Shown here: positions 30,974 to 52,689 of the stretch, piece after piece
Layout: every line of letters starts with the position of its first letter
How positions within the stretch are numbered: the stretch's first letter is position 1
Source: an uncultured Gammaproteobacteria bacterium
GTDB taxonomy: Bacteria; Patescibacteriota; Microgenomatia; UBA10105; UBA927
DNA length: 64,000 nucleotides
Assembly: GCA_964349125.1 (NCBI GenBank)
Contig: CAYGFH010000006.1
Coordinates: forward strand, 11,121-75,120
Direction: 5' to 3'
Notes under the pieces: model-generated
Told to the model about the DNA's origin: nothing
Database searches by the model: none
The model's input: the letters and a program-made list of their open reading frames with translations, nothing else
Translations under genes and position numbers: made by a program

Positions 30974-31712
30974 ATATTGTGAGAATTATTTTTGTTATGT
31001 ATATGTTGTTATCGTCTCGCCATAACGCCGAAACACAAGATACCCACAGTATAAGTAATATATATATATTTGAAAAGAAGCTCCCACCCTATCACAGGGC
31101 GCGAACACTTCCTGTATGCCCTGTGAGGCATGCGCCCTTATCGAATAAATTACTAGTATTCTTGCAGAAAATTTCAGTTTACTTCATGAATTGCAAAGTC
31201 AAACATCAAAGCAATATAGTTATAAGGATAAAAACATCTACAGAATTAGTTCAAATTCTTTGCGAGGAAGATTACTGTTTTTTCCCAAGCATCTTTGATT
31301 TCTTTGGTGCGTAGTTTTCGCCAGACGGGTTTGCAAAGGCAGTTCCACTCCGTATCAAATATGAATATCATGTGTGACCCTCAGTGCGGTCAATGAAGCA
31401 TCAAATTCCTTTACTCTTTCATGAGTCATTACAACTTCAGAGTATTCTCAGGCTTTTTGAGGCATGACAAAATACCCGTTCGTCACAGGAAAGTAGGATA
31501 CATCATCGGTCTACTCAATCCGCGTCCGGAAGCCGGTGACCATGGCATCTATTTTTTCTGTATCTGAAATTTTGGTGCCATCGAGCTAAAAAGTAGGTAC
31601 ACCAGGTAATAAGGATACCGATCAAATACATAATGGGAGAAAATTTTGCAATCATAGTAATCCACTAGTGTGAAACATAGATCACAAAAGTCAAATCAGG
31701 AAGTAGACGTAT

Positions 31713-32303
31713 TTATTTGGATGCAAAAATAAGCGTCCAGGCAAACGGTGTATATACACGCTGTATAGATAACCCAGCGCTTCTTAACAAGGTAACGATT
31801 GCATATGATGACCAATGATTAATATGTTCTGGATGGTTACCAAATGTACGTGGATATTTTCCTCGCAGAAAATTTGCGATTTGAAAATACGGCTCATTTG
31901 GGACGGAAACAAGTATGTGTTTTTTAGACACACGGCGTATTTCTGCTATAGCTTTCTCCGGATGTTCCAAATGCTCCAGCACTTCAGAACAGATAACCAG
32001 ATCAAACGCCGATTCCGGAAACGGGAGGGAATATATCGATGCCTTTGCAATTCGAAGTGTTGGCGCTGTTTTTTCGGCCAATGCTATGGCTTCTTCTGAA
32101 TAATCTATTCCTGACATTGTCGCTTTAATACCTGCCTTGGTAAGCTGTGTCAGAGTAAATCCTTCGCCACAGCCTGCATCAAGAATTGTCTTGGGATTAG
32201 CAAGGCGGACACACTCGATTAGTCTCCTGTTAAATCGCGACAAAAGATACCGCTGTATAGGATTGCTATTGGTATGCTTCGCGTAATTTGTAGTTACTTT
32301 CAT
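31713..32303 (-). CDS. class I SAM-dependent methyltransferase (type 11)
   Basis: 196 aa. It has motif I ILDAGCGEGFTL, motif II DLVICSEVLEHL and HILVSVPN. Confidence 0.75.
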   Translation of the reverse strand: MKVTTNYAKHTNSNPIQRYLLSRFNRRLIECVRLANPKTILDAGCGEGFTLTQLTKAGIKATMSGIDYSEEAIALAEKTAPTLRIAKASIYSLPFPESAFDLVICSEVLEHLEHPEKAIAEIRRVSKKHILVSVPNEPYFQIANFLRGKYPRTFGNHPEHINHWSSYAIVTLLRSAGLSIQRVYTPFAWTLIFASK

Positions 32304-32304
32304 A

Positions 32305-33846
32305 ATGAGGTCATCACCGATTCTTGTATGTCAATCGCCTCTACTTCACAGTGAATCGATCAATTATAATATACCCGTGGGAAAAACACTGACGGAATTC
32401 GTGAAACGACATTGGGATACTATTATCCTTACACTGCTGATCTCCGTGTATACCGTTGTTCTGGCAACGCTGTCTGTACGCCGACATAATGCATTCGCAT
32501 CCCTCTTTGATTTGGCGAATATGGATCAGACGCTGTGGTATACGCTCAACGGACATTTTTTTCAATTCAGACTTCCCGACGATTTTGTATCCCGATTTTC
32601 CGTACACGCCGATATCCTACTCATACTGTTATCTCCCCTGTATATCATTTGGAATGATGTCCGGGCGCTTCTTGTATCCTCATCATTTTTTCTGGCTTTG
32701 GGTGCAATACCTGTATTTCTGCTGTCCCGAACGCTGTTGGGGAGGAAGATACCTGCACTTATACTTGCGCTTGCGTACCTGCTTAATCCCGGTGTGCAGT
32801 GGACAAATATATATGACTTTCATGCGGTTTCTCTCGCTATCCCACTACTGCTTGCAGCATTTTATTGTGCCCATGCGAAACGGTGGCGTTGGTACGCAGT
32901 CTGGACAATATTGGCCATTCTGACTAAAGAAGATATATCCCTGAATATCGCGATGATGGGACTTATGATAGCGCTGGTGTATAAAGAACGCGTGGTCGGG
33001 GTTATCACATTTCTCTTAGGTATCGCCTGGTTTTTTAGTATGGTGACCGTTGTCATGCCGTATTTCAGCCCAAACAACATCCACTGGGCGTTGGATAAAA
33101 TGACGGGAAGTGTGGAGAACCCATTAGCACAAACCATCTCCCGGTATACTGATCCACGCGTACTCATCTCCACGTTTATCACCAACCCAAAGACGATCGA
33201 GTATTATACACTCCTCCTGAAGCAATTTGCCTATGTACCCATCTTGGGATTGCCATGGTTGCTATTGGGAGCACCCGCTTTAGCCATAAATGTAATACGT
33301 GACACCACATCCATCACATTTCATTACGACAGCGGTGTAATTCCTGCTCTAGTGATTGCAACAATATACGGTTTCTACTATCTCAAGAGGATTTTGATGT
33401 TGATTCCACTTCAAAAATCATTGCGTGTTGGTGTAATGACCGTATTTATGCTTTTGTTTATTACCGCAGTATCCAGAGTGAATTATCATTACAGCCCACT
33501 TCCTACCACGCCATCATGTTCCTGTTATATCTATAACGTCACGGATGAGGACCGTGAATTTGAAAAGAAATTGCAGTCAATCCCGAAAGACGCATCGATC
33601 ACGGCATCTCTCGAGATTCGTCCGCATGTAAGCCATCGGGAGCTTGCGTTCACACTCCCTAGTGCCACAGAGTCCGCTACGTATATTGCCATGATTACGC
33701 AAAACAGAATTATCAGTGATTACGATGAAAAAACGTATGAGAAGGAATTAATCGCCGATTTAAAGTCCAAACCGGACCAGTTTGAGATACTCCATGCCAG
33801 TGAACATTTCTACTTATTTAAACGAAGACTGCAAGTTGATCTGTGA
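32305..33846 (+). CDS. DUF2079-like polytopic membrane protein (first gene of glycosylation operon)
   Basis: 513 aa, multi-TM. The segment FDLANMDQTLWYTLNGHFF resembles the conserved N-terminal region of DUF2079 proteins. It overlaps the next gene by 4 bp (ATGA). Confidence 0.45.
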   Translation: MRSSPILVCQSPLLHSESINYNIPVGKTLTEFVKRHWDTIILTLLISVYTVVLATLSVRRHNAFASLFDLANMDQTLWYTLNGHFFQFRLPDDFVSRFSVHADILLILLSPLYIIWNDVRALLVSSSFFLALGAIPVFLLSRTLLGRKIPALILALAYLLNPGVQWTNIYDFHAVSLAIPLLLAAFYCAHAKRWRWYAVWTILAILTKEDISLNIAMMGLMIALVYKERVVGVITFLLGIAWFFSMVTVVMPYFSPNNIHWALDKMTGSVENPLAQTISRYTDPRVLISTFITNPKTIEYYTLLLKQFAYVPILGLPWLLLGAPALAINVIRDTTSITFHYDSGVIPALVIATIYGFYYLKRILMLIPLQKSLRVGVMTVFMLLFITAVSRVNYHYSPLPTTPSCSCYIYNVTDEDREFEKKLQSIPKDASITASLEIRPHVSHRELAFTLPSATESATYIAMITQNRIISDYDEKTYEKELIADLKSKPDQFEILHASEHFYLFKRRLQVDL

Positions 33847-34334
33847 AGATAGATAACAATATAACGAAAAATATACTGGTAAAACATGAACGTATCTGCT
33901 ATAACCATCATATGGCAAGTGCAATTGAGACAATCTTCTACAAGAATAAACCTGCAGCTATCATTGCCAGAGGCTCAGTTGCAGTTGACGGCATTAAATT
34001 CATAACAGACCCCGATAACGCACTCCAGGTTGGGTTTCACCAGCGACCAAAGGGTATGAAACTTGAGCCCCATGTACATACGATGGAAAAACCGATCATT
34101 ATTGAGGAAATTCAGGAAGTACTTATGGTTATGTCCGGTTCAGTCCGACTTACAGTGTATGCGCATACCGGTGAGGTGTTAGGCAAGAGAATACTCAAAG
34201 CAAACGATAGCGTGCTGTTACTGCGTGAAGGACACCAGATCGAATACTTGGAAGATACACGAATGTTTGAAGTAAAACAAGGTCCATACCCGGGTGTGAA
34301 AAACGCAAAAATATATCTAAACAAAAAATCATAA
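33843..34334 (+). CDS. cupin-fold protein, possible WxcM/FdtA-like sugar 3,4-ketoisomerase
   Basis: 163 aa. His-containing beta strands (HQRPKGMKLEPHVHT, VLMVMSGSVRLTVY) are typical of small cupins. The context is decisive: it is translationally coupled with a DegT aminotransferase. Confidence 0.45.
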   Translation: MKIDNNITKNILVKHERICYNHHMASAIETIFYKNKPAAIIARGSVAVDGIKFITDPDNALQVGFHQRPKGMKLEPHVHTMEKPIIIEEIQEVLMVMSGSVRLTVYAHTGEVLGKRILKANDSVLLLREGHQIEYLEDTRMFEVKQGPYPGVKNAKIYLNKKS

Positions 34335-34338
34335 CACC

Positions 34339-35445
34339 ATGATCCCGGTCAACGAACCACTCATAGCACCAAATGCTCTCCCCTACGTGAAGGATTGTAT
34401 TGAGACCGGCTGGATTTCCTCATCAGGCAAATATATAGAGCAGTTTGAATCCGCATTCGCAAAGTATCTGGATGTAGCATATGCCACCACCACAACCAAC
34501 GGAACGACAGCACTTCACCTGGCGCTGGCTGCGCTCGATATACAAAAGGGTGACGAAATTATCGTTCCAGACTTGACGATTATCTCCTGCGGGCTGGCTC
34601 CCCTCTACATGGGCGCTACACCAGTATTTGTTGATGTCGATCCCAGAACCGGAAATATTGATCCTACACTCATTGAGAAACATATTACGAAAAAAACAAA
34701 AGCTATTATGGTAGTACACCTCTACGGTCACGCGGCAGATATGGATCCTATCATGGAGATTGCCAGACGACATAACCTACACGTAGTGGAAGATGCCGCG
34801 GAGGCACACGGCGCACTGTACAAAGGGAAAAAAGTCGGCGGTATCGGGGATATCGGCTGTTTCAGTTTTTATGGAAATAAGATAGTGACAACAGGCGAAG
34901 GCGGCATGGTAGTGACCAACAACAAATCCCTCTATGAGCATGCCAAGGTGCTCAAAGACCTCGCGCACAGTCCCGCTAAGCGGTTTTACCACGAAGAAGT
35001 TGGATTTAATTTCCGTATGACAAACATGCAGGCAGCTCTTGGATTGGCACAATTGGAGCAGATAAATACCTATCTCAAGATAAAAATGCATATGGCTGAA
35101 CAATATACAAAGCAGCTTTCAGATATCAAGTGTCTGGAACTCCCTATTCAGGAATCCTGGGCCACAAATGTCTATTGGATGTACGCACTTCTTGTTAAAA
35201 AAGACGCGAATGTTAATCGGGATACGCTGCGAAAAAAACTGAAAGAATCTGGTATTGACACCAGAGACTACTTTGTACCGCTCCATAGACAACCTGTGTT
35301 CGTGTCACTGGGGCTTAGCAAAAAGGCATCCTATCCTGTCAGTGATGATCTGTCCGATCGCGGTTTTTACCTCCCGTCGGGACTCGCCATAACAGATGAA
35401 CAAATCCGGCAGGTCACAACGGTGCTGCATACTTTACTACCATGA
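34339..35445 (+). CDS. DegT/DnrJ/EryC1/StrS family sugar aminotransferase (PLP-dependent)
   Basis: 368 aa. The N-terminus IPVNEPLIAPNALPYVKDCIETGWISSSGKYIEQFE is the canonical start of this family. A lysine-containing FSFYGNKIVTTGEGG block is present. Confidence 0.9.
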   Translation: MIPVNEPLIAPNALPYVKDCIETGWISSSGKYIEQFESAFAKYLDVAYATTTTNGTTALHLALAALDIQKGDEIIVPDLTIISCGLAPLYMGATPVFVDVDPRTGNIDPTLIEKHITKKTKAIMVVHLYGHAADMDPIMEIARRHNLHVVEDAAEAHGALYKGKKVGGIGDIGCFSFYGNKIVTTGEGGMVVTNNKSLYEHAKVLKDLAHSPAKRFYHEEVGFNFRMTNMQAALGLAQLEQINTYLKIKMHMAEQYTKQLSDIKCLELPIQESWATNVYWMYALLVKKDANVNRDTLRKKLKESGIDTRDYFVPLHRQPVFVSLGLSKKASYPVSDDLSDRGFYLPSGLAITDEQIRQVTTVLHTLLP

Positions 35446-36191
35446 GCGCGGTTTCCGTGATTCTCCCAACATTTAACGAAGCAGGAAATATACCTCTCCT
35501 TCTTGCATCACTGCACAGGCAAGTCAGAAACCTCAAGGAAATACTGATAGTCGATGATAACTCACCAGATAACACAGCAGTAATAGCCAAAAAATGGGCT
35601 GCTGATCATGCTAAACATGTATCAGTGCGTGTTATATTGAGGCGGTCAGATAACGGACTCACACAGAGTATCAGCGAAGGCATACGTCAGGCAAAAGGGA
35701 CAATAATAGTATGGATGGACGCGGATTTTTCCCATCCACCGGAGGTGATTAACACTCTCGTTGCACAGATTGAAAATGGCTTCGATATAGCCGTCGCCTC
35801 ACGCTTCATACGGGGAGGAAAGTCCAAACTCGCACGCGATGAAACCGAATCCAAAGCCGCAATCGTTCTAAGCTCACTGGCAAACCGCATAATGCAGTAC
35901 GTGTTTCAGGTATCGTTTCACGATTTTACCAGCGGATTTATAGCCGTACGGAAACAGTGCGTAAGAGCTATTCCGCTTACCGGATCGTACGGCGAATATT
36001 TTATTGATTTTATTATACGTGCACTTGCCAAGGGATACACAGTCGTCGAGCTGCCGTATGTATCACCATCCAGACTCCATGGGGCCTCAAAAACAGCACC
36101 CTCATTCGGTATACTGCTTCGCAGGGTACGTCAGTACGGTGGTACTATTATCAGACTGCTATGGGAAAAATACATAACGCACACGCTATAA
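35442..36191 (+). CDS. GT2 polyprenyl-phosphate sugar transferase (DPM1/GtrB/ArnC-like)
   Basis: 249 aa. VSVILPTFNEAGNI...ILIVDDNSPDNT...VWMDADFSHPP is the DPM1-like GT-A signature. Confidence 0.8.
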   Translation: MSAVSVILPTFNEAGNIPLLLASLHRQVRNLKEILIVDDNSPDNTAVIAKKWAADHAKHVSVRVILRRSDNGLTQSISEGIRQAKGTIIVWMDADFSHPPEVINTLVAQIENGFDIAVASRFIRGGKSKLARDETESKAAIVLSSLANRIMQYVFQVSFHDFTSGFIAVRKQCVRAIPLTGSYGEYFIDFIIRALAKGYTVVELPYVSPSRLHGASKTAPSFGILLRRVRQYGGTIIRLLWEKYITHTL

Positions 36192-36766
36192 CATACAGGG
36201 AGATTACCCATTCCGAAATCCCCACTGCTTCCAAACTGCATGAGAAGGTATTGGAAAGCACAGGTTCTCTCATTGGACAACCGTATGTACAGGCACTATA
36301 TAGTGATTTGCTATCCAATACTCCGGATACTATGGTGATGGGAGCATTCAACGGAAATTCTCTTGTCGGACTGGTGAGCGCATCCCGATCTGTTACTGCA
36401 ACAGACTCAGTTGTATCTGCGCATTTGTTTGAACTTCTTCCCCGGATAATCATCTCTGGACTCAAAGGTCATATTTCACCCATAGAAATTTTGACCCGTC
36501 GGTCCTTACATGCGTATGTGAAAACACTCATGAAACCTGATGATGTATATATTCACACGCTGTTCACCGATCCGGCGCACAGGAGATGTGGGATAGCATC
36601 CGCCCTGGTTGGTGAAATACAAAAACGCATGGGTGCATCGTATATCTATGTAGATACCCGAAAATCAAACAACACTGCCCTCTCGTCCTATACGCATATG
36701 GGCTTTGAGATGGTAAAAGAGATAGGCAATGCGGTGTTACTGAGGTCCGTGGTTCGTACACAGTAA
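36161..36766 (+). CDS. GNAT family N-acetyltransferase
   Basis: 201 aa. Motif A is HTLFTDPAHRRCGIASALVGEIQKRM. There is a 31-bp overlap with the upstream GT2. Confidence 0.7.
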   Translation: MGKIHNAHAITYREITHSEIPTASKLHEKVLESTGSLIGQPYVQALYSDLLSNTPDTMVMGAFNGNSLVGLVSASRSVTATDSVVSAHLFELLPRIIISGLKGHISPIEILTRRSLHAYVKTLMKPDDVYIHTLFTDPAHRRCGIASALVGEIQKRMGASYIYVDTRKSNNTALSSYTHMGFEMVKEIGNAVLLRSVVRTQ

Positions 36767-36777
36767 ACACGACCCTT

Positions 36778-38469
36778 GTGTTCCCTGTCACTTTGGCATT
36801 AAATACATTCATGTATTCACGACTTGTTGCCGCTATCAGGCAAAAACGCACGATCCAATTGTTCGTGCTTTTTATCCTAATACTGCAGCTGGGACAATAC
36901 ATGTTTCTCTACACGAGAGCAAACAGAATCACACCGACAGGTCATGTGCATACAATTGAGAATGTTGATGCCTACTACCCGGATGTTATCCGCCAAGCAA
37001 AGATGGGTGCATGGGCACATACGTATTCACTTACCACCGAGCCAACTTCCCCGATTTACACCTATTTATTTTTCATTGCTGCCGGAAAAGTAGCGGCACT
37101 CGGTGATATTGATCCCGTGATTATGTATGAAATAACTCGTGTAACGGGTGGAATTGCCGTGATACTGACCACGTATTGGCTTATATCACTGTTGTTTCCT
37201 ATTTCTTTACAATTTCCTGCATTGTGCTTTGCACTTATGCTTGAAACGGGCCCAGAGTGGAGCCGCATGTTTTCGGCGGCGCCGTGGCACTGGACAGCTG
37301 CACTTCCCCCGCAGGCTGTTATCGCCCGGCATTTCGGATTACCGCATCACACGTGGAGTGAAGCATTCGGGCTCGCACTTTTAGCTGTCGTGATCATTGA
37401 AATGAAGAAACGGACCTGGTACATGCCGCTTGGTCTGCTGTTTTTTTCCATTTGCGGACCGCTTATTAATCCGACATATTTTTTGATACTAATCAGCTGC
37501 GTGTTTCCAATCTGGATACTGTACTCGTACAAAATCGGGACGATAAGCACAGCGCTCATTCCAATAGTATTTTCTACCGTAGGCGTCTTGTGTGCTGGAT
37601 TGTTTACCAAATCGCAATTTCTCGTGGGACCGCCGTGGAATGCGGTTATTGCATCTGAAAAATCCTGGTGGACAACTGAATATATCCTCACTCCTTTTAT
37701 ACAGTCGTTTGGGTTGTATTACCCGTTTGTTGTGGTCTTGTTCATTCTGATACCTATGACATGGAGGCATTGGTCGCGGTCTATGCGCCAGATATTTTTT
37801 CTGTCACTTGGGTGGAGTTTTTTGCCAGTAGGGCTCATATACATTTCCGCGCTTCCCTGGGTACCGCTGGTTAATGGTCGCATAGCGTCTGATCTCACTC
37901 CAGTTCCTATAGCACTGCTGTCCACACTTGCCTTCTATGCTGTGACGAGAATGCAGTATGGCATGAGTGTGGCTCGCATCGTGTTGTGTGTGGTACTCGG
38001 AATCACTGTGGGTATTTCCGGAATTCTATCCGTACGATACCATGCGCTCACCATTGAAGATCAGAATGCGTCCATTCAGCATAAAGGAAATAGCTTTACA
38101 CTCTATCCGACAATCGCGCTTTGGGAAGGAATGATGGAACTAAAGAAACTCCCGCCTTGGAGCCATGTCATGATATTGCCTCGTATGGGTGATATCCTCA
38201 TGGCGTATATGCCTATTCATGTCTATCAGGGACAGCCGCATGATGGCGATGTGGATTGGCTGGAACGTCGCGGTGTATCTCATCGTTTTTACACTGGAGA
38301 GATGTCCAGAGAAGAATTAAAAGCGGTCTTTACCTACAATAACATTTCGTATGTGTTCGTGGGTCCCGAGGAAAAGTATCCGCGGGTAACAAAAGAATTT
38401 TACCCGGATATCCTGACAGTTATCTTTTCTAATGATGAGGTGACGATTTATAAAGTTACTGGCCTGTGA
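36778..38469 (+). CDS. GT-C fold membrane glycosyltransferase (ArnT/PMT-like), terminal gene of glycosylation operon
   Basis: 563 aa. It has about 11 TM helices over the first ~430 aa, then a soluble C-terminal domain. The architecture matches GT39/GT83 lipid-linked-sugar transferases. Confidence 0.45.
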   Translation: MFPVTLALNTFMYSRLVAAIRQKRTIQLFVLFILILQLGQYMFLYTRANRITPTGHVHTIENVDAYYPDVIRQAKMGAWAHTYSLTTEPTSPIYTYLFFIAAGKVAALGDIDPVIMYEITRVTGGIAVILTTYWLISLLFPISLQFPALCFALMLETGPEWSRMFSAAPWHWTAALPPQAVIARHFGLPHHTWSEAFGLALLAVVIIEMKKRTWYMPLGLLFFSICGPLINPTYFLILISCVFPIWILYSYKIGTISTALIPIVFSTVGVLCAGLFTKSQFLVGPPWNAVIASEKSWWTTEYILTPFIQSFGLYYPFVVVLFILIPMTWRHWSRSMRQIFFLSLGWSFLPVGLIYISALPWVPLVNGRIASDLTPVPIALLSTLAFYAVTRMQYGMSVARIVLCVVLGITVGISGILSVRYHALTIEDQNASIQHKGNSFTLYPTIALWEGMMELKKLPPWSHVMILPRMGDILMAYMPIHVYQGQPHDGDVDWLERRGVSHRFYTGEMSREELKAVFTYNNISYVFVGPEEKYPRVTKEFYPDILTVIFSNDEVTIYKVTGL

Positions 38470-39046: not shown

Positions 39047-42000
39047 TTATGCGATATTGTGGTCGCGCTTAAACCATTCGTAATATACGACTGGGATAAA
39101 CAGCAGCATGATGGTGCTTGCAATCAGAAGTCCGGAAATGATGGCACCTCCTAATCCCTGCCAGAGGGCACTGGCGAGTGTAACAGGCAGTAATCCGAAT
39201 ACTGTACAGAGTTTCGTCAGAATGATCGGTTCCATGCGGCTGGTGCCGGCGTCTGTAATTGCTTCGGTGAAGGGCATACCTTCCTTGAGGTTCATATTTA
39301 TCTTATCCACGATAAACATCGAGTTAGTCACAACGATACCAAAGAGGGATAATACGCCAATCAGTGCCGGGAATGACAGCGGTGTCCCGGTCAGCGCAAA
39401 AACGAAAAACACACTGGAAACCGCAAGCGGAATCACGAGTAACACGAGAACAGCTTGCCTGTACGACTGAAATTGCACAACCATAGTGACGAGAATCAGT
39501 ATGAATGCCAGTACCATTGCCTGCAGGATAGACTGTACAGACTTTCGGTTTTCGTCATTTACACCGCCTGTTTTCCAGCCGTACCCATTTTCCATTTTCA
39601 TATTTGTGGCGAATTTCTCAAGCTCTGCATTTTTTTGTGTCGTATTAAATCCTGCACGTACCGACGCCGATACCGTAATAGTTCGTTTCCCGCCCTCGCG
39701 GGTTATGGCCGTTGGATTTGATGCAGTGCGTATGGTTCCCAATCCGAGAATTGGCACATTTCCTTGTGTTGTCGGAATCATAATTGCTCCGATGGTATCT
39801 GGGGATTTTGTACCTCCCGCAAATGAAAACACAATGTCCTTTTTATCTTTGATACTGGTATCAAACTTAGCATCAGACAGGGTAAAACCACTGGCAAACG
39901 ACCGAAGCCATAGTGCGACACTGTCAGGAGTCAGACCATATTGATTCAGCTTCTTCTGGTCGGGCACAAATACAAGCTTGCTGGTTCCCGTTTTTACGCT
40001 TTTTTGCACATCACCTACGCCCTGCTGTGTTCCCAGATATGACACAAGCGTATCTGCATACCTGTTCAGTTTTGTCAGGTCATCCCCATATAACTGCATT
40101 TGTAAATCACTCCCTGCTGGAGGACCGCCTGATACTTCTACTATCGATACTTTCCCTTTTGTGTATTGCGCATACTCTTCCCGAAGTTCTTCAGCAATCT
40201 GTATCGATGATTTCTTGCGATCTTCTTTTTCTTTCAGATGGATTGTAAACCCGGCTATAGAATCTCCGGAGCTCCCGCCACGTGCTCCCATCCCGGAGCC
40301 AACCGAAAGTGTAACAAAATCTGATTCGGGTATATGACGGAGTTCTTCAAGTAACTGAAGTGACTCTGCGGAAGTTGTCGTCACATTGGTTCCGAGCGGA
40401 TATTCCACATTTAGATAGAGCGTTGTGCTGTCATCCTTCGGAAAGAATTCATTCTTCACAAACCCCATAGGAAGTAAAGCAAATGCCCACACAGCATAAA
40501 AAACAATTGCAAACAGCACAAATCGTCTGGATTTTTTGGAGTGCAATATCTTGGTGATAAGCCAGTGATACTTTTTCGCTATAACATCTATATCAATCAT
40601 GCCGTGATCGATATACTGGGAAATTCTCGGCCAGTATGACTGTATTCTTTTGTGACCTCGTATTCGGGTAGCAAGCAGCACTGACAACACTCCATATGTT
40701 CTCCTGACGACAAATAGCAGTATGAGATACAGCATGGCGATGAGCGGGAACAGTGGATTTGCTTTGAATACCGAGAGAAACACTGCACTGATCAGAATAA
40801 TGCCAACTACTTTGCCAAACACTTTAATGCGCTCTGCAATTTCCGGTTTTAGGATCACAATCATAAACGGCAATGTTATAAGAACCGCAATGGCAGTGGA
40901 TGAGATCATAGTGACAGTCACGACGACCGGTATAGGTTTAATAAATTCGCCAATAATACCGCTTGCCAGAAGGAGTGGTACGAATGACCAGATCGTGGTA
41001 ATCGTTGTTGACCAAATTGGCACAATTGTATCACGCCAGACTATGCGCCCCGTTTGCTGTGGAGTGAATTTCTTGGTCTTGAAATAACTCGTCATAGCGG
41101 ACACGACAACTATGGTATCGTCCACCAGAAGTCCTAGCGCCAACAGAAATGCAAACATGGAAAGAAAGTTAATGGACATGCCGATGACCCGCATAAACAC
41201 AAAGGCAGCCAAAAATGTGAGTGGAACAGTGAGCGATGCGATAATAGCCTGCCTCAGGCCCAAAAAGACAAACAGACAGGCAAACACGAGAAGGATCGTC
41301 GAACGGAATTCTCCGAGCAGTTCAAAGAATTGATCATCAATTTCTTTTGCCGCATTGGTAATCGTGGTAACCGCGTACGTTGTGCCATAGGGAGCGAGAG
41401 TTTCTGTTACAGTTTTTTCCACTACGGAAGCTGCTTCATCGATATTTGCGCTTCCTGATTTGTGAACACTAAATGTGACAACCCTACGCGGATGTGTCTC
41501 TTTGCTGGCTTCGAATGCCGACCGTTGGCTATGGGCGGACTGCTCTCTGACAATCGCGATATCCCCCAGTGACACTGTTGATTGGCCCACACGAATGGTC
41601 AGGTTTCGGATATCTGATATTGACGTGATTTGAGGATCAATCGCCAGAGAGAATGTGTTTCCCGATGTCTCTACTGTCCCTGCCGGGTAGGATACGATAG
41701 ACGATCGGATCTGGGACGAAAGAAGCGCAGGGTGTATCCCGTATTGTCGTATAGCCTCGGGTCGTACTTCCACGGCAATTTCCTGCTTTTCAAATCCACT
41801 CACTATAACACGATCAACCTTTGGAGTATTCTCTATATTCTTTTTAAGAAGTTCTGCCATACGCATGAGACTCGGTACATCCGGTGCCGAAAGGGCAAAC
41901 GTCCATATCGGCTCGTCTTCAAAATCCAACGCCTTTACCTGAGGTGTGAGTGCATCCTTTGGAAGGCCTGATGTGGCATCTACAGCTGACTGTACATCTG

Positions 42001-42385
42001 CCTTGGCTTTGTCCTGCGTGACACTGGAAAGAAATTGCAGCGTGATTGCAGATACATTATCAAGAGATGTGGACGTAAGGGTATCTATGCCTGCAATATT
42101 TTGCAGACTTTTCTCAAGCGGGATTGTCACGAGTGATTCCACATCAGAGGGAGATGCTCCAGGGAGTGCCGTAATTACTGTAACAATGGAAATTTTTATC
42201 TCGGGATTTAGTCTGCGCGGGATAGAGAGATAACTCACAAATCCCAAAAACAATATAGCAATCACCGAGAGAATGACAATGCGCATGTTGGAAATGTAGT
42301 TCCAGATTGCATCACCTGTTAGTTTGGCATCATAGGTTATGCGCTCGAAATATGATCCGTGATTGTGCGTTTTAGGTGCCTTCAT
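39047..42385 (-). CDS. RND superfamily efflux transporter permease (AcrB/HAE-like)
   Basis: 1112 aa. It has the 12-TM duplicated architecture with two large extracytoplasmic loops, typical of RND pumps. Confidence 0.9.
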   Translation of the reverse strand: MKAPKTHNHGSYFERITYDAKLTGDAIWNYISNMRIVILSVIAILFLGFVSYLSIPRRLNPEIKISIVTVITALPGASPSDVESLVTIPLEKSLQNIAGIDTLTSTSLDNVSAITLQFLSSVTQDKAKADVQSAVDATSGLPKDALTPQVKALDFEDEPIWTFALSAPDVPSLMRMAELLKKNIENTPKVDRVIVSGFEKQEIAVEVRPEAIRQYGIHPALLSSQIRSSIVSYPAGTVETSGNTFSLAIDPQITSISDIRNLTIRVGQSTVSLGDIAIVREQSAHSQRSAFEASKETHPRRVVTFSVHKSGSANIDEAASVVEKTVTETLAPYGTTYAVTTITNAAKEIDDQFFELLGEFRSTILLVFACLFVFLGLRQAIIASLTVPLTFLAAFVFMRVIGMSINFLSMFAFLLALGLLVDDTIVVVSAMTSYFKTKKFTPQQTGRIVWRDTIVPIWSTTITTIWSFVPLLLASGIIGEFIKPIPVVVTVTMISSTAIAVLITLPFMIVILKPEIAERIKVFGKVVGIILISAVFLSVFKANPLFPLIAMLYLILLFVVRRTYGVLSVLLATRIRGHKRIQSYWPRISQYIDHGMIDIDVIAKKYHWLITKILHSKKSRRFVLFAIVFYAVWAFALLPMGFVKNEFFPKDDSTTLYLNVEYPLGTNVTTTSAESLQLLEELRHIPESDFVTLSVGSGMGARGGSSGDSIAGFTIHLKEKEDRKKSSIQIAEELREEYAQYTKGKVSIVEVSGGPPAGSDLQMQLYGDDLTKLNRYADTLVSYLGTQQGVGDVQKSVKTGTSKLVFVPDQKKLNQYGLTPDSVALWLRSFASGFTLSDAKFDTSIKDKKDIVFSFAGGTKSPDTIGAIMIPTTQGNVPILGLGTIRTASNPTAITREGGKRTITVSASVRAGFNTTQKNAELEKFATNMKMENGYGWKTGGVNDENRKSVQSILQAMVLAFILILVTMVVQFQSYRQAVLVLLVIPLAVSSVFFVFALTGTPLSFPALIGVLSLFGIVVTNSMFIVDKINMNLKEGMPFTEAITDAGTSRMEPIILTKLCTVFGLLPVTLASALWQGLGGAIISGLLIASTIMLLFIPVVYYEWFKRDHNIA

Positions 42386-42390
42386 AGAGA

Positions 42391-43851
42391 TTATTCGATG
42401 TTCACAGATTCATCACTGACCACAGCTCGGCTTGTAATGATATGCGATTCTTTGGATAAGCCTGATAATACCTCGACATACTGACCAAATACCTGGCCTA
42501 GCTTCACCGGTATACTTTTTACTACATACGCTCCCGTTCCAGATGGCGTAGCCACGTAGACATAACTCTCCGTCGCGGTCTGATATAGAGCATCAATCGG
42601 CACAAACGGAACTGCACTCATGGATGCCTTGGCTCCAAGGGAAACCTGCACCGACACCGTTGAACCACTGGCAAAGAGAGATTCTTTCTCACTCGGTACA
42701 CTAAAGACTACACTGTAGAGAGCGCCATCGGTCGGCTGTGTGGATATGTACCTGGGCAAAAGGTCCAGGTATTCCATTCCGACGGTAACAGTACTCGGCT
42801 CAATACGAGATATATTTTTCGCTGTAGCTTCAGGGACTAAAAGCACAATCGATGAAGTCTTTTTGACACCTGTGATGGTCGCAAGTACTGTTCCGGAGCT
42901 CACATTCATTCCGGGAGTCACGTTCACCCGTTCTACTGTTCCTGCAAACGGAGATGCAGGAAACATAAGGCTTTCAGAAATCTGGGCAACTCCCAGGTTG
43001 AGTTTTGCTAATTCCCTGTTTAGATCCAGTGATTTTTCCTGGATGGCTAACTGTGCGATGGTGAGGTCATGCTGCTTATTGGATAACTGCGTGGGAGCAT
43101 TATCACTGCCTACCTGATATTCAGCATTTGCCACGGCGACGCGCAGTGAATTAATGGCTGATTGTGCACCAGATTGCCCCTGTTTTGACTGCAGGATAAG
43201 GCTGTCATTTGCGCCACCCACATTGGTGGACTCCAGATACGCGATTTGCGACACCAACGAATCGACAATTTGTTGATTGAGTGTTAACAGATTTTTGGTA
43301 TCACTTATAGAGTTATTCGTGATATTCCGAGTATCCCCCGCTTGTTTCTGCACACTATCGGCAATTTCTCTTTGCCTGACTATCAAATCTTTTTGTGCAT
43401 CGTACGTACTGTTGACGAATTCATAATTCTTTTGAGCAATTTGCCGTGTAACACTCGGAAGTGTTCCGCCCTGATAGTTTGTTGAAAGCCACATAAGGGC
43501 TGTGCCGCGATGCACCTGGGCTCCTTCAGTTACGTACACCTGCTGCACAACTCCTGAAGTTTGGGCGATAATTTTGACGACACCGCTCGTTTCGACCTGG
43601 GCCGTCATAGTGACACGAGGGGCTGTGCCCACATTGTACACAGACACCACTTTAGGACTTACCGATTTTTTCTCTGTTTTTGTCTTTGGCTTTGATAGCA
43701 CAGATCCGACGAGTATACTGAGAAATAAAACGCCCAACACGCCAAAAAATGCGTATGCCGGATAGGTAATGATCGTCCGTGTAACACGTTTATACAGTGA
43801 TCGGGTTACTGTATGCGCCTGTGCGTATGACTGTTTCAGAATTTTTTTCAT
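42391..43851 (-). CDS. efflux adaptor / membrane fusion protein (HlyD family)
   Basis: 486 aa. It has an N-terminal TM anchor, a barrel-sandwich/coiled-coil region and a beta-barrel C-terminus. It is immediately upstream of the RND gene. Confidence 0.7.
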   Translation of the reverse strand: MKKILKQSYAQAHTVTRSLYKRVTRTIITYPAYAFFGVLGVLFLSILVGSVLSKPKTKTEKKSVSPKVVSVYNVGTAPRVTMTAQVETSGVVKIIAQTSGVVQQVYVTEGAQVHRGTALMWLSTNYQGGTLPSVTRQIAQKNYEFVNSTYDAQKDLIVRQREIADSVQKQAGDTRNITNNSISDTKNLLTLNQQIVDSLVSQIAYLESTNVGGANDSLILQSKQGQSGAQSAINSLRVAVANAEYQVGSDNAPTQLSNKQHDLTIAQLAIQEKSLDLNRELAKLNLGVAQISESLMFPASPFAGTVERVNVTPGMNVSSGTVLATITGVKKTSSIVLLVPEATAKNISRIEPSTVTVGMEYLDLLPRYISTQPTDGALYSVVFSVPSEKESLFASGSTVSVQVSLGAKASMSAVPFVPIDALYQTATESYVYVATPSGTGAYVVKSIPVKLGQVFGQYVEVLSGLSKESHIITSRAVVSDESVNIE

Positions 43852-43855
43852 AGTG

Positions 43856-44296
43856 TTACTCCAATCTGATCTTACCGACCAAGGTTTCTACAAGGCGCGC
43901 CTGCGCATTTGTGAGTCCGAGCGTATGACTGCCACCTCCCCCGGACATAGTTTTTTTTATACAACACAACTGATTCTTGCCATCCTCCGTGATGTCTATG
44001 ACATGAGCGCGCTTATCTGCAGATTCAATACGCTGCAGATATCCCAATTTTTCCAGTTCCGATATTTTACTTGTTGCCGCGGACACTTTAATACTGAGCA
44101 ATTCGGCGATATCCGATACTGACTGTCGCTTCATCGAGACAAGACGTAGAATAATGCTCTGACTCATCACATCGCTGTTATGCGTTTTTACTAAAGCCTG
44201 TAGCTTTTTCCCAAACAAATACAGCTTGACGAGCAGTGAGAACTCATAGTCTTGCATAAGAGGCTGTATACTACGATAATCGTAGTACTTTGTCAA
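43856..44296 (-). CDS. MarR family transcriptional regulator
   Basis: 146 aa. It has the winged HTH QSIILRLVSMKRQSVSDIAELLSIKVSAATSKISELEKLGYLQR. Confidence 0.7.
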   Translation of the reverse strand: MTKYYDYRSIQPLMQDYEFSLLVKLYLFGKKLQALVKTHNSDVMSQSIILRLVSMKRQSVSDIAELLSIKVSAATSKISELEKLGYLQRIESADKRAHVIDITEDGKNQLCCIKKTMSGGGGSHTLGLTNAQARLVETLVGKIRLE

Positions 44297-44313
44297 TAGA
44301 AGGGATCACTACG

Positions 44314-48456: not shown

Positions 48457-49608
48457 CTAGACAATCGTATCGGACGCGAATTTCAATATCTCCTTTGCGC
48501 GGATGCTCCAATCGATCGAACGGGCAAATTTCAGCGCGTCTGCTTGGAGTCTTTTGTATACTGCATTGTCATCCAACAGTTGTTCAATAGCATTGACAAA
48601 TCGATCCGTATCCCCGATGGGAACTTTTAGGACGCCCAGCTCTCGCCGCATCGAGGGTAAATCATAAATAACACCGGGTATCCGGCAGGCAAGTGCCTCA
48701 TCCAATGCAATATTTCCCGTGTCAAAGCGTGATGCAGAGATAAACATGCTACTCGATTTAAGCACCTGGATTTTTTGTGCGCCATCCAACACTCCCAAGA
48801 ACGCGACTGAGTCTCCAAGACCTAGTTCGATAACCTGTTGCCGTAGTACGTTCTCCAGTGGTCCTCCTCCGATAATCGCCAAGGTTCGCGAGGTGTCATG
48901 ATCATGCACAGTTTTCCATATGCGGATGAGCTCTGGTATACACTTTTGCGGCTTGAATCTGCCGACAAATACGGCCGTGTATTTGATGTTCCCTGCAGGT
49001 ATAGAGGTAAAAAAATTCATATCCACACCACCATCTACCGCATGTACGCGCGACGGCAACAGGTGAGTAAGGCTGATAAGCTCTGTAGCATCATACGTAG
49101 AAGAGGTCAGTACAAACCCGTTCGACCACTTTAAAAGTTGCACAACAATTGCCTCATGTATCCAAAAAAAGAACCCTATCACCGCACCGCCAGAATATCC
49201 TCCCCCAAAATATCGTTTAGTATACACGTACATAGACGTGAGAAATACTCGGGAGCGACTCCTCAGGTACATGATGTAAGCCGGAATACTGTCCGGCAGA
49301 AAAAACGAAGAAGCAAAATAGATATCCGCGGGGATTTTAGGAGTACATATCGCATAGAGCGATGCGAGTACGGTTTTTATGAAAATAGCGGCTTCGTATC
49401 CTAACGTGTCATATATAGCAAATGGCCAGACGCGAATATTCTCTTTGGGAAATCCATGCGACTGACAATACCTGGCACAAGATTCTGTTGTGAGTATAGT
49501 GACTATGTGTCCCTCACGACTCCAACGTTTCGCACATTCAATAAATATGGTATCTCCGCCTGTAGGGGTATTTGTGTGAAAGGCAATGTTGCAGATAACA
49601 ATTTTCAT
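48457..49608 (-). CDS. glycosyltransferase family 4 (GT-B)
   Basis: 383 aa. GT-B motifs are present, including the C-terminal E-x7-E-like region (FDTGNIALDEALACRIP). Confidence 0.65.
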   Translation of the reverse strand: MKIVICNIAFHTNTPTGGDTIFIECAKRWSREGHIVTILTTESCARYCQSHGFPKENIRVWPFAIYDTLGYEAAIFIKTVLASLYAICTPKIPADIYFASSFFLPDSIPAYIMYLRSRSRVFLTSMYVYTKRYFGGGYSGGAVIGFFFWIHEAIVVQLLKWSNGFVLTSSTYDATELISLTHLLPSRVHAVDGGVDMNFFTSIPAGNIKYTAVFVGRFKPQKCIPELIRIWKTVHDHDTSRTLAIIGGGPLENVLRQQVIELGLGDSVAFLGVLDGAQKIQVLKSSSMFISASRFDTGNIALDEALACRIPGVIYDLPSMRRELGVLKVPIGDTDRFVNAIEQLLDDNAVYKRLQADALKFARSIDWSIRAKEILKFASDTIV

Positions 49609-50600
49609 GGCGTAAATACGTCGTGTTCCCTACGGAAATCATCACCCATCAGGTACCCGCTCCCACCTACACAGTGGATCGTGTTGCCCATTGCTGTTGC
49701 AGTTAATGCATACCGTGCTACCGGTAAATTTGTACACCGAGTCCACGAGTCGGTTTTTGGATTATACGCGTGTATTTCGCCGGACACCGCCCATCCCTGT
49801 TCTCCGCCTACTATATAAAGGGTATCACCTATAGTCGCTGCGGCCAATCCGCTGACTTCATACGGCAATGGCGCTCTGGATTCCCACGTATCTGTCTCGG
49901 GATCGTACACTTCGTGTGTTGTCAGATTGTCAAACCGTGTCCCGGCGTAACCGCCCACTATATGTATTTTCCCTTGCACTACTGCGCCGGCTATATGCTC
50001 TCTGGCAGTGGGCATTGGCCGTTTCGTCTCCCAGGTATTTGTCTTGGTATCATATACTTCGACGACATTTACCGGCCGTTTATTTACACCACCACCAATT
50101 GCGTAAATTTTTGAGCCAATGGAAACTGCAACATGCGCGCCACGTGCAGTCGGCATGGGCGACAATTCGCTCCACACATTCTGCGCCGGATCATATCTGT
50201 ACATACAGCGCTGTGGAATAATGCGAATCCAATTCCCTCCTACCACATACACTCGACCGTCAACCGTTACAGCTGCAGTATGGTGAATTCCCTTTGGATA
50301 CGGCGCAACTGTCCTCCATGTTTTCGTTTGTGCCGAATATACCTCCACGAGGTTCGTGGGAAACCAAACTGAAGGCAACCATATGCCTCCCACTATATAT
50401 AGATCGCTTCCAGCTGCAGCTGCGGCGAATTCGTATCGGTAAGATGGTAGAGGACTGGCTGGTGATAAACTGCCCGCGAGCTTTGCCAGTTTCAGATTGG
50501 AGCCCTTTAGAATTCGATTGGGTTTGTATTTACGTTCGATGAACGATAGAAGTACTGCAAATGGGAATAGGAGTAATCGATGAAATGGAGACAGACTCAT
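49605..50600 (-). CDS. Kelch-repeat beta-propeller protein with N-terminal signal/anchor
   Basis: 331 aa. It has six repeats of the hydrophobic-GG Kelch pattern (LYIVGG, VYVVGG, IYAIGGG, IHIVGGY, LYIVGG, IHCVGG). Confidence 0.7.
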   Translation of the reverse strand: MSLSPFHRLLLFPFAVLLSFIERKYKPNRILKGSNLKLAKLAGSLSPASPLPSYRYEFAAAAAGSDLYIVGGIWLPSVWFPTNLVEVYSAQTKTWRTVAPYPKGIHHTAAVTVDGRVYVVGGNWIRIIPQRCMYRYDPAQNVWSELSPMPTARGAHVAVSIGSKIYAIGGGVNKRPVNVVEVYDTKTNTWETKRPMPTAREHIAGAVVQGKIHIVGGYAGTRFDNLTTHEVYDPETDTWESRAPLPYEVSGLAAATIGDTLYIVGGEQGWAVSGEIHAYNPKTDSWTRCTNLPVARYALTATAMGNTIHCVGGSGYLMGDDFRREHDVFTP

Positions 50601-51454
50601 ACGGGTAATGATAGCAAATCAAGAACGATGGTATCTTGGGTAAACCGCAGACACTGGCCCGCAAGCGCATTGCCAAACTCAATGGCACGTTTAGGATCAT
50701 GAAATTTCCCATGCGAATAGATGTAACCCGCACTGAAAATATCTCCTGCACCGATACTGCTTACAATGTCGCCAGTCGCAACCGGGTTCGTGGGCACTTC
50801 AGTCACATTTGCTCCCGAAAAGAGGGTAGCCCCGCGTTCTGCCTGGGTCATAACGACATGCACCGCGTTTTGTGATGCCCATGAGGACGCTACTGTACGA
50901 GTGTCGGAGTAATCAGCATCAGATACGATTACCGTGTCTACCAACGGGATGATTTCTGTGTCTTCAACAAATTCCCGAATTTGCACGGTGTTGTCTGCAT
51001 CAAACTGTCTGAAATATCCCTGAGGGAGGAGCGTAATCTCTGTGTTCCACTTTTTCAGTGATGCGATTTGCTTGATATATGACGGCGAGAAATTCGGAGC
51101 AAGCGGTGCAACACATATGGCGTCTGCTGCCCTAATTATTTGAGTGACAGCGTCGTCAATAACGATAGGCTTGGCATCAGTGTGATTCAGACATCGCTGT
51201 GTACGAATTCCCTGCACGATTGTATTTTCATATGTCATGGTTTCGCCCGGAAATGGAGATTCAGGATAAAATCTTGACATGCCCATGTATGGGATAAAGT
51301 CCCTGCCGTATGGGGCGATAATCGTCACATTACAATCAGGTAACTGTGAGAATATCCTGTGCATGAACATTGCGGGTGACCCTGCGCCAACAAATGTGCC
51401 GGACTCAGAGGTGTTGCGGTCGATACATACATGACCAAAGATCGCGATCTTCAT
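50597..51454 (-). CDS. PfkB-family carbohydrate kinase
   Basis: 285 aa. It has the C-terminal signature GAGDIFSAGYIY and an anion hole. Confidence 0.75.
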   Translation of the reverse strand: MKIAIFGHVCIDRNTSESGTFVGAGSPAMFMHRIFSQLPDCNVTIIAPYGRDFIPYMGMSRFYPESPFPGETMTYENTIVQGIRTQRCLNHTDAKPIVIDDAVTQIIRAADAICVAPLAPNFSPSYIKQIASLKKWNTEITLLPQGYFRQFDADNTVQIREFVEDTEIIPLVDTVIVSDADYSDTRTVASSWASQNAVHVVMTQAERGATLFSGANVTEVPTNPVATGDIVSSIGAGDIFSAGYIYSHGKFHDPKRAIEFGNALAGQCLRFTQDTIVLDLLSLPV

Positions 51455-52689
51455 ACCCTAATGGTATCATAAACCGACTCGATTCGTGTGGCCACTGTGC
51501 TCCAGGATAAATCGGAGACACTTTTTTGTAATTTCGCGCCAACCTCAGCTCGAACACTCGGAGACAACAGGAGAAATTCTATCTGTTCGGCCAGTAGTAG
51601 CGGATTATTCACCGATGTTATCAACTTTCCATGTTCATCATCAATAAGTCCCGAAATACCAGCCGCATTGGTTGTTATCACCGGTACTGAGCAGGCCATG
51701 GCCTCAAGCGCTGCCATACCAAAGGATTCGTAATGGGAAGGCATGACGACCATTGTCGCAGCGTTATAGTAATATAATAATTCTTCCTGAGTTTTTTTCC
51801 CGGCAAACGACACGGTGGCCTGCAGATTAAGTACACTGCGAATAGTATTCAGTGACTGTAGTGTTTTTGACCAGCTGGGAAGCGGCTGAGATATATCGCC
51901 TCCCGCTATGCAAAGCGTGACCGGGATGGTCGGGTTTCGTTTTGTCACAATTTTCATAGCATACATGAGCATGTCTATTCCCTTCAGAGGCTCAATGCGA
52001 CCGACAAACAGGATCATTTGCTGATTTGCGGGAACTCCTACGCGCGATTTTGACTCGAGTGGATCCATGGAATGGAATGTCAGCGGATTAACGCCAGGTG
52101 GTATAACCTGAACCTTGGTCACATCAGCATCATACAGATACTGCAGGTAATCCTTATCGCTTTGGCTGGTTGCTAGTATTGCGTGCGCTTCACGGCACAA
52201 CTGTAATTCCGCAGTAATTCGAGATACATCCTCTTTTTCGGATTCATCACGCGCCACCAGATTTTTCATAAGCGCGAGGGTATGGAATGACATGACAGTA
52301 GGAATAGCTTTTCCGAATAGTGTGGTAAGATTTGACGCAATAAGACCGGACAAATAGTAATGCGCATGAATGACATCCGGTAAAGTCTTCTCTGTGTCAT
52401 AGAATTCATGGACCCCACTGGAAAAATCATCAATGTACTGCATCACATCTTTTTTCGAAATATGTGACTGCGGACCTGCGACGACGTGAATCACACGAAA
52501 TCCCGGGACGACGGTTACGACGGGAATGTTATCCGCTTCCTGGCTCCGGGTGAACACATCGACCTGGACACCGTTTGCCGCAAGTGCCTTCCCAATTTCC
52601 AGGACGTACACATTCATACCTCCTGATTCTTTCCCCTCCTGGCTCGCCAGCGGGCATGTGTGGTACGAAATCATGGCAACGCGTTTCAT
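51451..52689 (-). CDS. glycosyltransferase family 4 (MshA / sucrose-phosphate-synthase-like)
   Basis: 412 aa. The N-terminal ISYHTCPLASQEGKESGGMNVYVLEIGKALAANG is typical of MshA-like GT4 enzymes. Confidence 0.75.
   Translation of the reverse strand: MKRVAMISYHTCPLASQEGKESGGMNVYVLEIGKALAANGVQVDVFTRSQEADNIPVVTVVPGFRVIHVVAGPQSHISKKDVMQYIDDFSSGVHEFYDTEKTLPDVIHAHYYLSGLIASNLTTLFGKAIPTVMSFHTLALMKNLVARDESEKEDVSRITAELQLCREAHAILATSQSDKDYLQYLYDADVTKVQVIPPGVNPLTFHSMDPLESKSRVGVPANQQMILFVGRIEPLKGIDMLMYAMKIVTKRNPTIPVTLCIAGGDISQPLPSWSKTLQSLNTIRSVLNLQATVSFAGKKTQEELLYYYNAATMVVMPSHYESFGMAALEAMACSVPVITTNAAGISGLIDDEHGKLITSVNNPLLLAEQIEFLLLSPSVRAEVGAKLQKSVSDLSWSTVATRIESVYDTIRV

Follow-up and report, generated by a model that had tools for sequence, protein, structure and literature searches.

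The window analysed here, a stretch of 64,000 nucleotides (nt) from contig CAYGFH010000006.1, contains six consecutive open reading frames (ORFs) on the forward strand at positions 32305-38469. The question raised by this locus is whether these genes serve one pathway and, if so, which of them belong to it and what it makes. The initial annotation, which was made from the DNA letters, had described six head-to-tail genes, and six ORFs on the same strand are indeed present: those of a DUF2079 membrane protein, a small cupin, a DegT aminotransferase, a family 2 glycosyltransferase (GT2), a GNAT acyltransferase and a membrane glycosyltransferase of the GT-C fold (552 amino acids (aa); hereafter the 552-aa GT-C). 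We consider it probable, at roughly 0.6, that five of them, in the order cupin-DegT-GT2-GNAT-GT-C, form a Gtr/Arn-like cassette for amino-sugar glycosylation by way of a lipid carrier. The likeness to Gtr and Arn logic, already proposed in the initial annotation, was borne out by the presence of a sugar aminotransferase, an N-acetyltransferase, a GT2 of the DPM1/ArnC class and a GT-C that are co-conserved in this order.

Family, fold, gene order and co-conservation are the observations on which this reading is built. Scans of representative genomes and of JGI metagenomes yielded five loci each for the close relatives of the 552-aa GT-C. Co-conservation extends to at least five other metagenomic loci. 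Loci L013, L019 and L020 and a JGI contig of 141 kb all have the block cupin-DegT-GT2-GNAT in this order. In L013, L019 and L020 it is followed by the 552-aa GT-C, with 80%, 63% and 57% identity to the window protein, respectively. The ATGA overlap between DegT and GT2 and an overlap of 31-34 nt between GT2 and GNAT are kept in the homologous cassettes. A further locus, L021, is cut off within DegT, and only the cupin and DegT of its cassette are visible; its DUF2079 protein is 73% identical to that of the window. In L014, L015, L018 and L012, more distant homologues of the GT-C (44-54% identity) still have DegT, a short GT2 or an acyltransferase, or more than one of them, as neighbours. The neighbours are DegT, a short GT2 and a left-handed beta-helix (LbH; hexapeptide-repeat) acyltransferase in L014 and L015, and DegT, a CDP-glucose-type nucleotidyltransferase and an RmlD-like reductase in L018. 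The upstream flank varies. RNase HII takes the place of DUF2079 in L019, and a GFO/IDH/MocA oxidoreductase and a LegB-like 4,6-dehydratase (TIGR04180, 200 bits) directly precede the cupin in L020. Of the gene order whose conservation the initial annotation had proposed as a check, cupin-DegT-GT2-GNAT(-GT-C) is conserved, but not DUF2079, which is present, together with a divergent methyltransferase gene, beside the cassette only in the window and in its closest relatives, L013 and L021. The names of the homologues (Gottesmanbacteria, Microgenomates, Patescibacteria) support the earlier suggestion of a host of the candidate phyla radiation (CPR) type.

Four of the six family calls, those for DUF2079, DegT, GT2 and GNAT, held under profile searches. 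The DegT ORF matched Pfam DegT_DnrJ_EryC1 (PF01041) with 404 bits (E 9e-121), and the GT2 ORF matched Glycos_transf_2 (PF00535) with 115 bits (E 4e-33). The best NCBIfam matches of the GT2 are all polyprenyl-phosphate transferases, namely ArnC, AglJ, Dol-P-hexose transferase and PpgS. Its best match in the PDB is the Dol-P-Man synthase of Pyrococcus (5mlz; E 5e-31; 35% identity across the catalytic domain), with the DDxSPD, MDADFSHPPE and SGF..RK motifs aligned, and ArnC structures come next at about 1e-13. The protein stops after the catalytic and interface regions and has no transmembrane (TM) helix. On this sequence evidence, the GT2 is predicted to be a polyprenyl-phosphate sugar synthase of the DPM1/GtrB class.

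A different account of the locus must be weighed at this point. The cassette may only make a nucleotide amino sugar for the assembly of a glycan in the cytoplasm, with the GT2 elongating that glycan and the GT-C acting, like an oligosaccharyltransferase (OST), a ligase or a polymerase, on a polyprenyl-diphosphate glycan. The lack of TM helices in the GT2 fits this account, and so does the failure to find a flippase for a monosaccharide-P-lipid. However, the GT2 aligns with Dol-P-Man synthase over the whole catalytic domain, including the DAD..HPPE and acceptor-side motifs, and the uniform class of its NCBIfam matches also argues against an elongating enzyme. Further evidence on this account comes from the GT-C.

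The 552-aa GT-C has no Pfam (E<=0.01) or NCBIfam match. The initial call of an ArnT/PMT-like protein therefore failed by sequence profile, since neither PF13231 nor PF02366 was matched, but its GT-C part stood by predicted fold. The model shows a multi-pass TM core and a long first outer loop, and it can be superposed on known structures. The top fold matches include STT3, AglB and PglB, ArnT is also found among the matches by fold, and the outer C-terminal alpha/beta domain resembles that of archaeal AglB. The AglB-like domain and the OST-type fold matches favour this alternative account. On the other hand, a reading of the alignment did not reveal the WWDYG motif of OSTs where the C-terminal domain begins, and no PglC/WecA-type phosphoglycosyltransferase, Wzx or Wzy was found in the locus or in the flanks covered by L001 (about 5 kb upstream and 10 kb downstream). 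Taken together, we regard this account as unlikely.

The helix pattern and the charge distribution of the 552-aa GT-C predict about 11 TM helices, with the N-terminus inside and the C-terminal domain outside; many K and R residues in the N-termini support this topology. The predicted outer loops carry the motifs D53-x-Y-Y56..R61-Q, PHH179-180, EKSWW283-287 and NGR355-357. The candidate catalytic residue D53 precedes the invariant Y56 and R61, and the D-Y motif is the consensus of the wider family. A word-index search found only 26 relatives, none of them with a Pfam domain, and the named close relatives are from Gottesmanbacteria. A profile search over 1.84 billion cluster representatives gave 2585 matches at E<=1e-3 and 1007 at E<=1e-10. 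Most of the matches listed are full-length, about 540 aa, and the family comprises more than 1000 clusters at 50% identity. The few wider members that carry a name are called "hypothetical protein" and belong to Patescibacteria or Microgenomates. A link to Pfam by way of distant members was sought and rejected: none of the 63 sampled matched PMT_2 or PMT, and three borderline matches, each of a single member, were to unrelated families. Our literature search found nothing relevant on GT-C proteins in Patescibacteria.

Paralogues of the 552-aa family are found as tandem arrays of three or four in other loci (L014 8313-13500 and 16502-18256; L020 2712-4349; L018 721-2388). A further GT-C subfamily of about 545 aa is common to L014, L018 and L020, where it lies beside RmlD-like reductases and nucleotidyltransferases. 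These arrays and the additional subfamily suggest multi-step glycan assembly outside the membrane. A hidden Markov model search of the window detected no extra paralogues of either GT-C or of the cupin.

The second alternative takes all six genes as one coupled operon, in which the cupin is an FdtA-type 3,4-ketoisomerase that feeds a 3-aminotransferase, and DUF2079 is a non-catalytic, acceptor-specific partner of a single GT-C. The ketoisomerase and the accessory role had both been proposed in the initial annotation. The arrangement on one strand with short spacers speaks for this view, and the cupin is of FdtA size and keeps an HxH motif. In addition, the order in L020, with a 4,6-dehydratase-like short-chain dehydrogenase/reductase, the cupin, DegT and an acyltransferase, mimics RmlB-FdtA-FdtB-FdtC. 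The identity of the cupin, however, is against it. None of the 27 aligned members of the cupin family matched Pfam FdtA (PF05523) or dTDP_sugar_isom at E<=1, while all 27 matched the WbuC cupin model TIGR04366 (best E 7e-10). An FdtA/WxcM identity was therefore rejected, and the isomerase step is left unsupported, since the cupin is WbuC-like.

The window cupin itself has no Pfam match and reaches 33 bits against TIGR04366, below the cut-off of 42. From these profile scores we class it as a member of a related WbuC subfamily and not as a certified member of TIGR04366. The family is small, with about 32 proteins. Residues H44, H55, H57, Q69, E70 and H109 are invariant in the alignment, and the tail motif FEVKQGPYPG is conserved. 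In the loci examined, the cupin always lies directly upstream of an orthologous DegT. A search of the PDB with the family profile gave nothing, even at E<=10, and the PDB matches of the single sequence, to toxin repeats, were dismissed as spurious. In the literature found, WbuC comes up only as a gene next to mcr-9 or blaCTX-M. The cupin may modify the keto-sugar, by epimerisation or isomerisation.

The aminotransferase also points away from FdtA-type chemistry. The best NCBIfam model for DegT is that of the LegC family (TIGR04181), with 362 bits against a cut-off of 420. With this score and with 323 bits for perosamine synthase, the protein is nearer to C4 aminotransferases than to QdtB (240 bits). 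An alignment of 363 columns with the GDP-perosamine synthase of Caulobacter (3bn1; E 2e-95) shows 44% identity, and the GNK motif of the active-site lysine is retained.

As for DUF2079, the ORF matched PF09852 with 184 bits (cut-off 28.2; E 7e-54) over profile positions 5-411 of 459. Its adjacency to the cassette in three related genomes favours the six-gene view. In the predicted structure, however, the GT-C fold is complete, and the first outer loop bears an invariant Asp. The gene is absent from the cassettes of L019 and L020, a homologue with 59% identity is found by itself among housekeeping genes, and 65 nt separate DUF2079 from the cupin. An hhalign comparison between DUF2079 and the 552-aa family gave a probability of 0.6%, and their kinship was rejected. 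Since hhalign finds no relationship, the locus has two unrelated enzymes of the GT-C fold and not a GT-C with an accessory. DUF2079 is a second GT-C transferase in its own right, which came to the locus in this lineage and is not an obligate partner, and the accessory role given to it earlier is not sustained. It may draw on the same lipid-linked donor and act on a different acceptor or at a different position. With the cupin, the aminotransferase and DUF2079 all considered, we judge the six-gene view to be quite unlikely.

The DUF2079 family is abundant in Patescibacteria, and we found no literature on it. In several Patescibacteria, DUF2079 is fused to PF03706 (LPG_synthase_TM, flippase-like) in proteins of about 770-795 aa (P0078, P0079, P0098, P0100, P0106, P0113, P0118 and P0123). 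These fusions hint at a link between the DUF2079 GT-C family and the flipping of lipid-linked substrates.

The GNAT ORF matched PF00583 (E 3e-10), and its PDB matches, to AAC(3)-I and RimI, are weak. It evolves fast, with 25-33% identity among loci in which DegT keeps about 75%. PseH and WecD are GNATs that act on nucleotide amino sugars. The use of a GNAT instead of an LbH enzyme had been called unusual in the initial annotation; this point is weak, since an LbH acyltransferase occupies the place of the GNAT in the more distant loci L014 and L015. Other class-I methyltransferases adjoin the cassette or the GT-C in L015, in L012 and on the JGI contig of 141 kb. This recurrence suggests methylation of the sugar or glycan, and the methyltransferase is probably an accessory enzyme that would have this role. 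That the genes are mere neighbours with no common pathway, for example with the GNAT and the cupin in unrelated small-molecule metabolism and their adjacency due to compact CPR genomes, is very improbable: neither of these two proteins has a specific functional annotation and some GT-C homologues have no sugar genes nearby, but the cupin-DegT-GT2-GNAT order and overlap lengths are conserved despite completely different flanks, and an LbH acyltransferase stands beside DegT where the GNAT is missing.

We return to the five-gene cassette. Its substrates, order of steps, topology and acceptor are proposed from homology and gene order, as is the mechanism as a whole. A nucleotide-activated 4-keto-6-deoxyhexose would be supplied by a 4,6-dehydratase encoded elsewhere in the genome. 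The Per/LegC-like aminotransferase would aminate this keto-sugar, most likely at C4, and the GNAT would N-acetylate the amine. At the inner face of the membrane, the membrane-peripheral GT2 would then load the sugar on polyprenyl phosphate, another protein would flip the lipid-linked sugar across the membrane, and the 552-aa GT-C would transfer the sugar to an acceptor of the envelope outside the membrane. The candidates for this acceptor in a CPR bacterium are a surface protein and a wall or lipid-anchored polymer, but not lipid A; to our knowledge, CPR genomes lack lipid A synthesis. Since DegT and GT2 are both close to GDP-sugar enzymes, our best guess for the sugar, a weak one, is a 4-acetamido-4,6-dideoxyhexose, linked to GDP and of the N-acetyl-perosamine or bacillosamine type.

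Several facts weigh against the five-gene reading. No protein reaches an NCBIfam equivalog cut-off, and the identities of the sugar and of its nucleotide are therefore guesses. As stated in the initial annotation, the window contains no dehydratase or nucleotidyltransferase; this was confirmed by a Pfam scan of most ORFs of at least 150 aa and by tblastn over the whole window, in which the dehydratase, oxidoreductase and nucleotidyltransferase sequences of L020 and L018 found no counterpart. None of the flippase families of Pfam (GtrA, SMR, MATE, Wzx) was found among the genes called between about 5 kb upstream and 10 kb downstream, and a crude hydropathy screen of the window showed no small multi-TM ORF of the GtrA type. 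The GT2 has no TM anchor to hold it at the membrane. The GNAT is of a generic kind and might act on a molecule other than the sugar. Homologues of the GT-C in L016 and L017 have no adjoining sugar genes. The candidate catalytic D53 is kept, as Asp or Glu, in only about 21 of the 25 close homologues.

The anchor and the flippase may have a common substitute: one of the two GT-Cs may serve as a docking site for the TM-less GT2, and this would replace a dedicated anchor or flippase. A more specific proposal can also be made, tentatively and with considerable doubt, that the 552-aa family and the cassette decorate the CPR surface with a 4-acetamido-4,6-dideoxyhexose delivered on polyprenyl phosphate. 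The family concerned is large and centred on CPR/Microgenomates, and we found no curated or literature coverage of it. We know of no description of such donor chemistry for DPM1-type synthases. If this proposal is true, the WbuC-like cupin would gain its first functional context, in the tailoring of nucleotide sugars.

How far the cassette departs from known systems can be judged from four comparisons. Three-component extracytoplasmic glycosylation consists of a GtrB polyprenyl-P-sugar synthase, a GtrA flippase and a Gtr* GT-C (PMC11127046). As in Gtr, a GT2 of the DPM1/GtrB class adjoins a transferase of the GT-C fold, and the implied donor would be a polyprenyl-monophosphate monosaccharide that is used outside the membrane. 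Unlike in Gtr, no flippase gene was found with the cassette, its GT2 lacks the C-terminal TM helices of GtrB, and the sugar would first be tailored by an aminotransferase and an acyltransferase of the same operon. The GT-C also comes from a family without a Pfam or NCBIfam model, and a second GT-C, DUF2079, lies alongside. Gram-positive equivalents of the Gtr system are CsbB/GtcA/YfhO and GacI/GacL.

The resemblance to Arn lies in the presence of a DegT aminotransferase, N-acylation, a polyprenyl-P GT2 and a GT-C in one operon, and the sequence and fold matches include ArnC and ArnT. However, the equivalog cut-offs are missed (ArnB NF008658, 203 of 631 bits; ArnC NF007986, 72 of 529 bits), and no ArnA formyltransferase/decarboxylase, ArnD or ArnE/F was found among the proteins of the locus or window that were scanned. 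The acyl group would come from a GNAT, and the host is a CPR bacterium.

In the mycobacterial PpgS (Rv3631)/Rv3779 and Francisella FlmF2/NaxD/FlmK systems, a short, TM-less DPM1-like GT2 makes a polyprenyl-P N-acetyl-amino sugar, and a GT-C passes it on to a wall polymer in a context other than that of lipopolysaccharide. The cassette GT2 is likewise short, TM-less and DPM1-like, as in PpgS/Rv3779, and PpgS is also one of its NCBIfam matches. These systems use ready-made UDP-GalNAc and a deacetylase, whereas in the cassette the amino sugar would be built by DegT and GNAT of the operon, and no deacetylase is present. The first steps resemble those towards GDP-perosamine and legionaminic acid (a GMD or LegB dehydratase, a Per or LegC aminotransferase and a PerB or LegH N-acetyltransferase), as judged from the 3bn1 and LegC matches of DegT, the LegB-like dehydratase that precedes the cassette in L020 and the N-acetyltransferase that follows. 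The acetyltransferase differs from PerB/LegH in being a GNAT and not an LbH enzyme. The product would pass to a polyprenyl-P GT2 and not to a cytoplasmic Leloir transferase or a sialic-acid-type synthase, and a WbuC-like cupin is added.

The gene boundaries were established by direct reading of the junctions (Table 1). The initial annotation had joined all six genes by ATGA overlaps of 4 bp or short gaps. This is correct for DegT/GT2, a true ATGA overlap, and for the 4-nt gap between cupin and DegT, and the GT2/GNAT junction is an overlap of 31 nt. Elsewhere, gaps of 44-65 nt are found. The apparent overlap of DUF2079 and the cupin is GTGA and would require a cupin start at GTG 33843, which the homologues do not support. 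Homologue N-termini and gene calls place the start at ATG 33912, which leaves a gap of 65 nt, and they likewise place the start of the 552-aa GT-C at ATG 36811, 44 nt after the GNAT. Translational coupling of all six genes was therefore overstated. The sizes of 513 and 563 aa given earlier for the two membrane proteins are those of maximal ORFs, since the homologue-supported starts lie further in. DUF2079 most likely starts at GTG 32377, which gives 489 aa, because its homologues have 480-495 aa and model residues 1-16 have a predicted local distance difference test score (pLDDT) below 50. This start gives a divergent spacer of 73 nt to the methyltransferase, compared with 73 nt in L021 and 53 nt in L013. 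On opposite strands, 1 nt separates the methyltransferase start codon from the first ATG of the DUF2079 ORF (32303-32305), and this spacing most likely reflects over-extension of the DUF2079 ORF. A promoter and terminator scan of the locus gave one weak promoter-like site, in the DUF2079-cupin gap. The scan is uninformative, since it gave fewer matches than shuffled sequences did.

Table 1. Genes of the locus and other features of the window, with window coordinates.
Feature	Position	Strand	Remark
SAM (S-adenosylmethionine)-dependent methyltransferase, 196 aa	31713..32303	-	Divergent from DUF2079; Pfam Methyltransf_11/23/25
DUF2079 polytopic membrane protein, second glycosyltransferase of the GT-C fold	32305..33846	+	Likely true start GTG 32377
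Small WbuC-like cupin, 140 aa	33912..34334	+	Opens the conserved cassette
PLP (pyridoxal phosphate)-dependent sugar aminotransferase, 368 aa	34339..35445	+	Perosamine-synthase/LegC clade
Short GT2 of the DPM1/ArnC class, 249 aa	35442..36191	+	Predicted polyprenyl-phosphate glycosyltransferase; no TM segment
GNAT acyltransferase, 201 aa	36161..36766	+	Putative amino-sugar N-acetyltransferase
Glycosyltransferase of the GT-C fold, 552 aa	36811..38469	+	No Pfam/NCBIfam model; maximal ORF from GTG 36778
ORF, 587 aa	17976..19739	-	No Pfam match
Second short GT2, 235 aa	23413..24120	+	9 kb upstream of the locus
Membrane-anchored SGNH/GDSL esterase-like protein, 381 aa	29828..30973	-	Weak LA_2486-family match
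Intergenic region, about 740 nt	30974..31712		No credible ORF
RND-type pump, membrane-fusion protein, MarR regulator	39047..44300	-	Directly downstream of the cassette
Operon of GT4, Kelch-repeat protein, sugar kinase, GT4	48457..52689	-	
GH130 protein, 644 aa	58397..60331	+	

The other features of the window in Table 1 are recorded as observations in their own right. Directly downstream of the cassette, the pump (ACR_tran, 1112 aa) is encoded with a membrane-fusion protein of 486 aa and the MarR regulator. This synteny is kept in L013 and L019, and the RND tripartite-style pump sits in a presumed monoderm CPR genome. On the other side, the esterase-like protein is not conserved in L013. In the region between its gene and that of the methyltransferase, GC content falls to its lowest value in the window (about 37%), and no Rfam match was obtained there even at a permissive threshold. 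The operon further downstream encodes two GT4 enzymes, a beta-propeller of Kelch repeats (331 aa) and a PfkB-type sugar kinase; it is a candidate for another surface-glycan locus, with the Kelch protein as an unusual component. The C-terminal half of the 644-aa protein belongs to GH130 (mannoside phosphorylase, E 6e-92), and its N-terminal part of about 350 aa has no family assignment. The second short GT2 gene is followed by an overlapping ORF of 209 aa. The stretch around the 587-aa ORF has a lower GC content (0.41) and a strongly positive AT skew (+0.14) compared with the rest of the window.

The logic of the cassette is already known, and the paradigm of lipid-carrier glycosylation is unchanged by it. 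What is worth noting is a large, CPR-centred GT-C family without a curated model, a functional class (GT-C glycosyltransferase) assigned by fold to the widespread DUF2079, and a conserved pathway context for a WbuC-like cupin. The CPR/Patescibacteria are mostly uncultured and host-attached, and their surface chemistry is almost unknown. A compact, conserved cassette, which would place a tailored amino sugar on the cell exterior, and a GT-C family that appears large and unannotated provide testable candidates for glycosylation of the CPR envelope.

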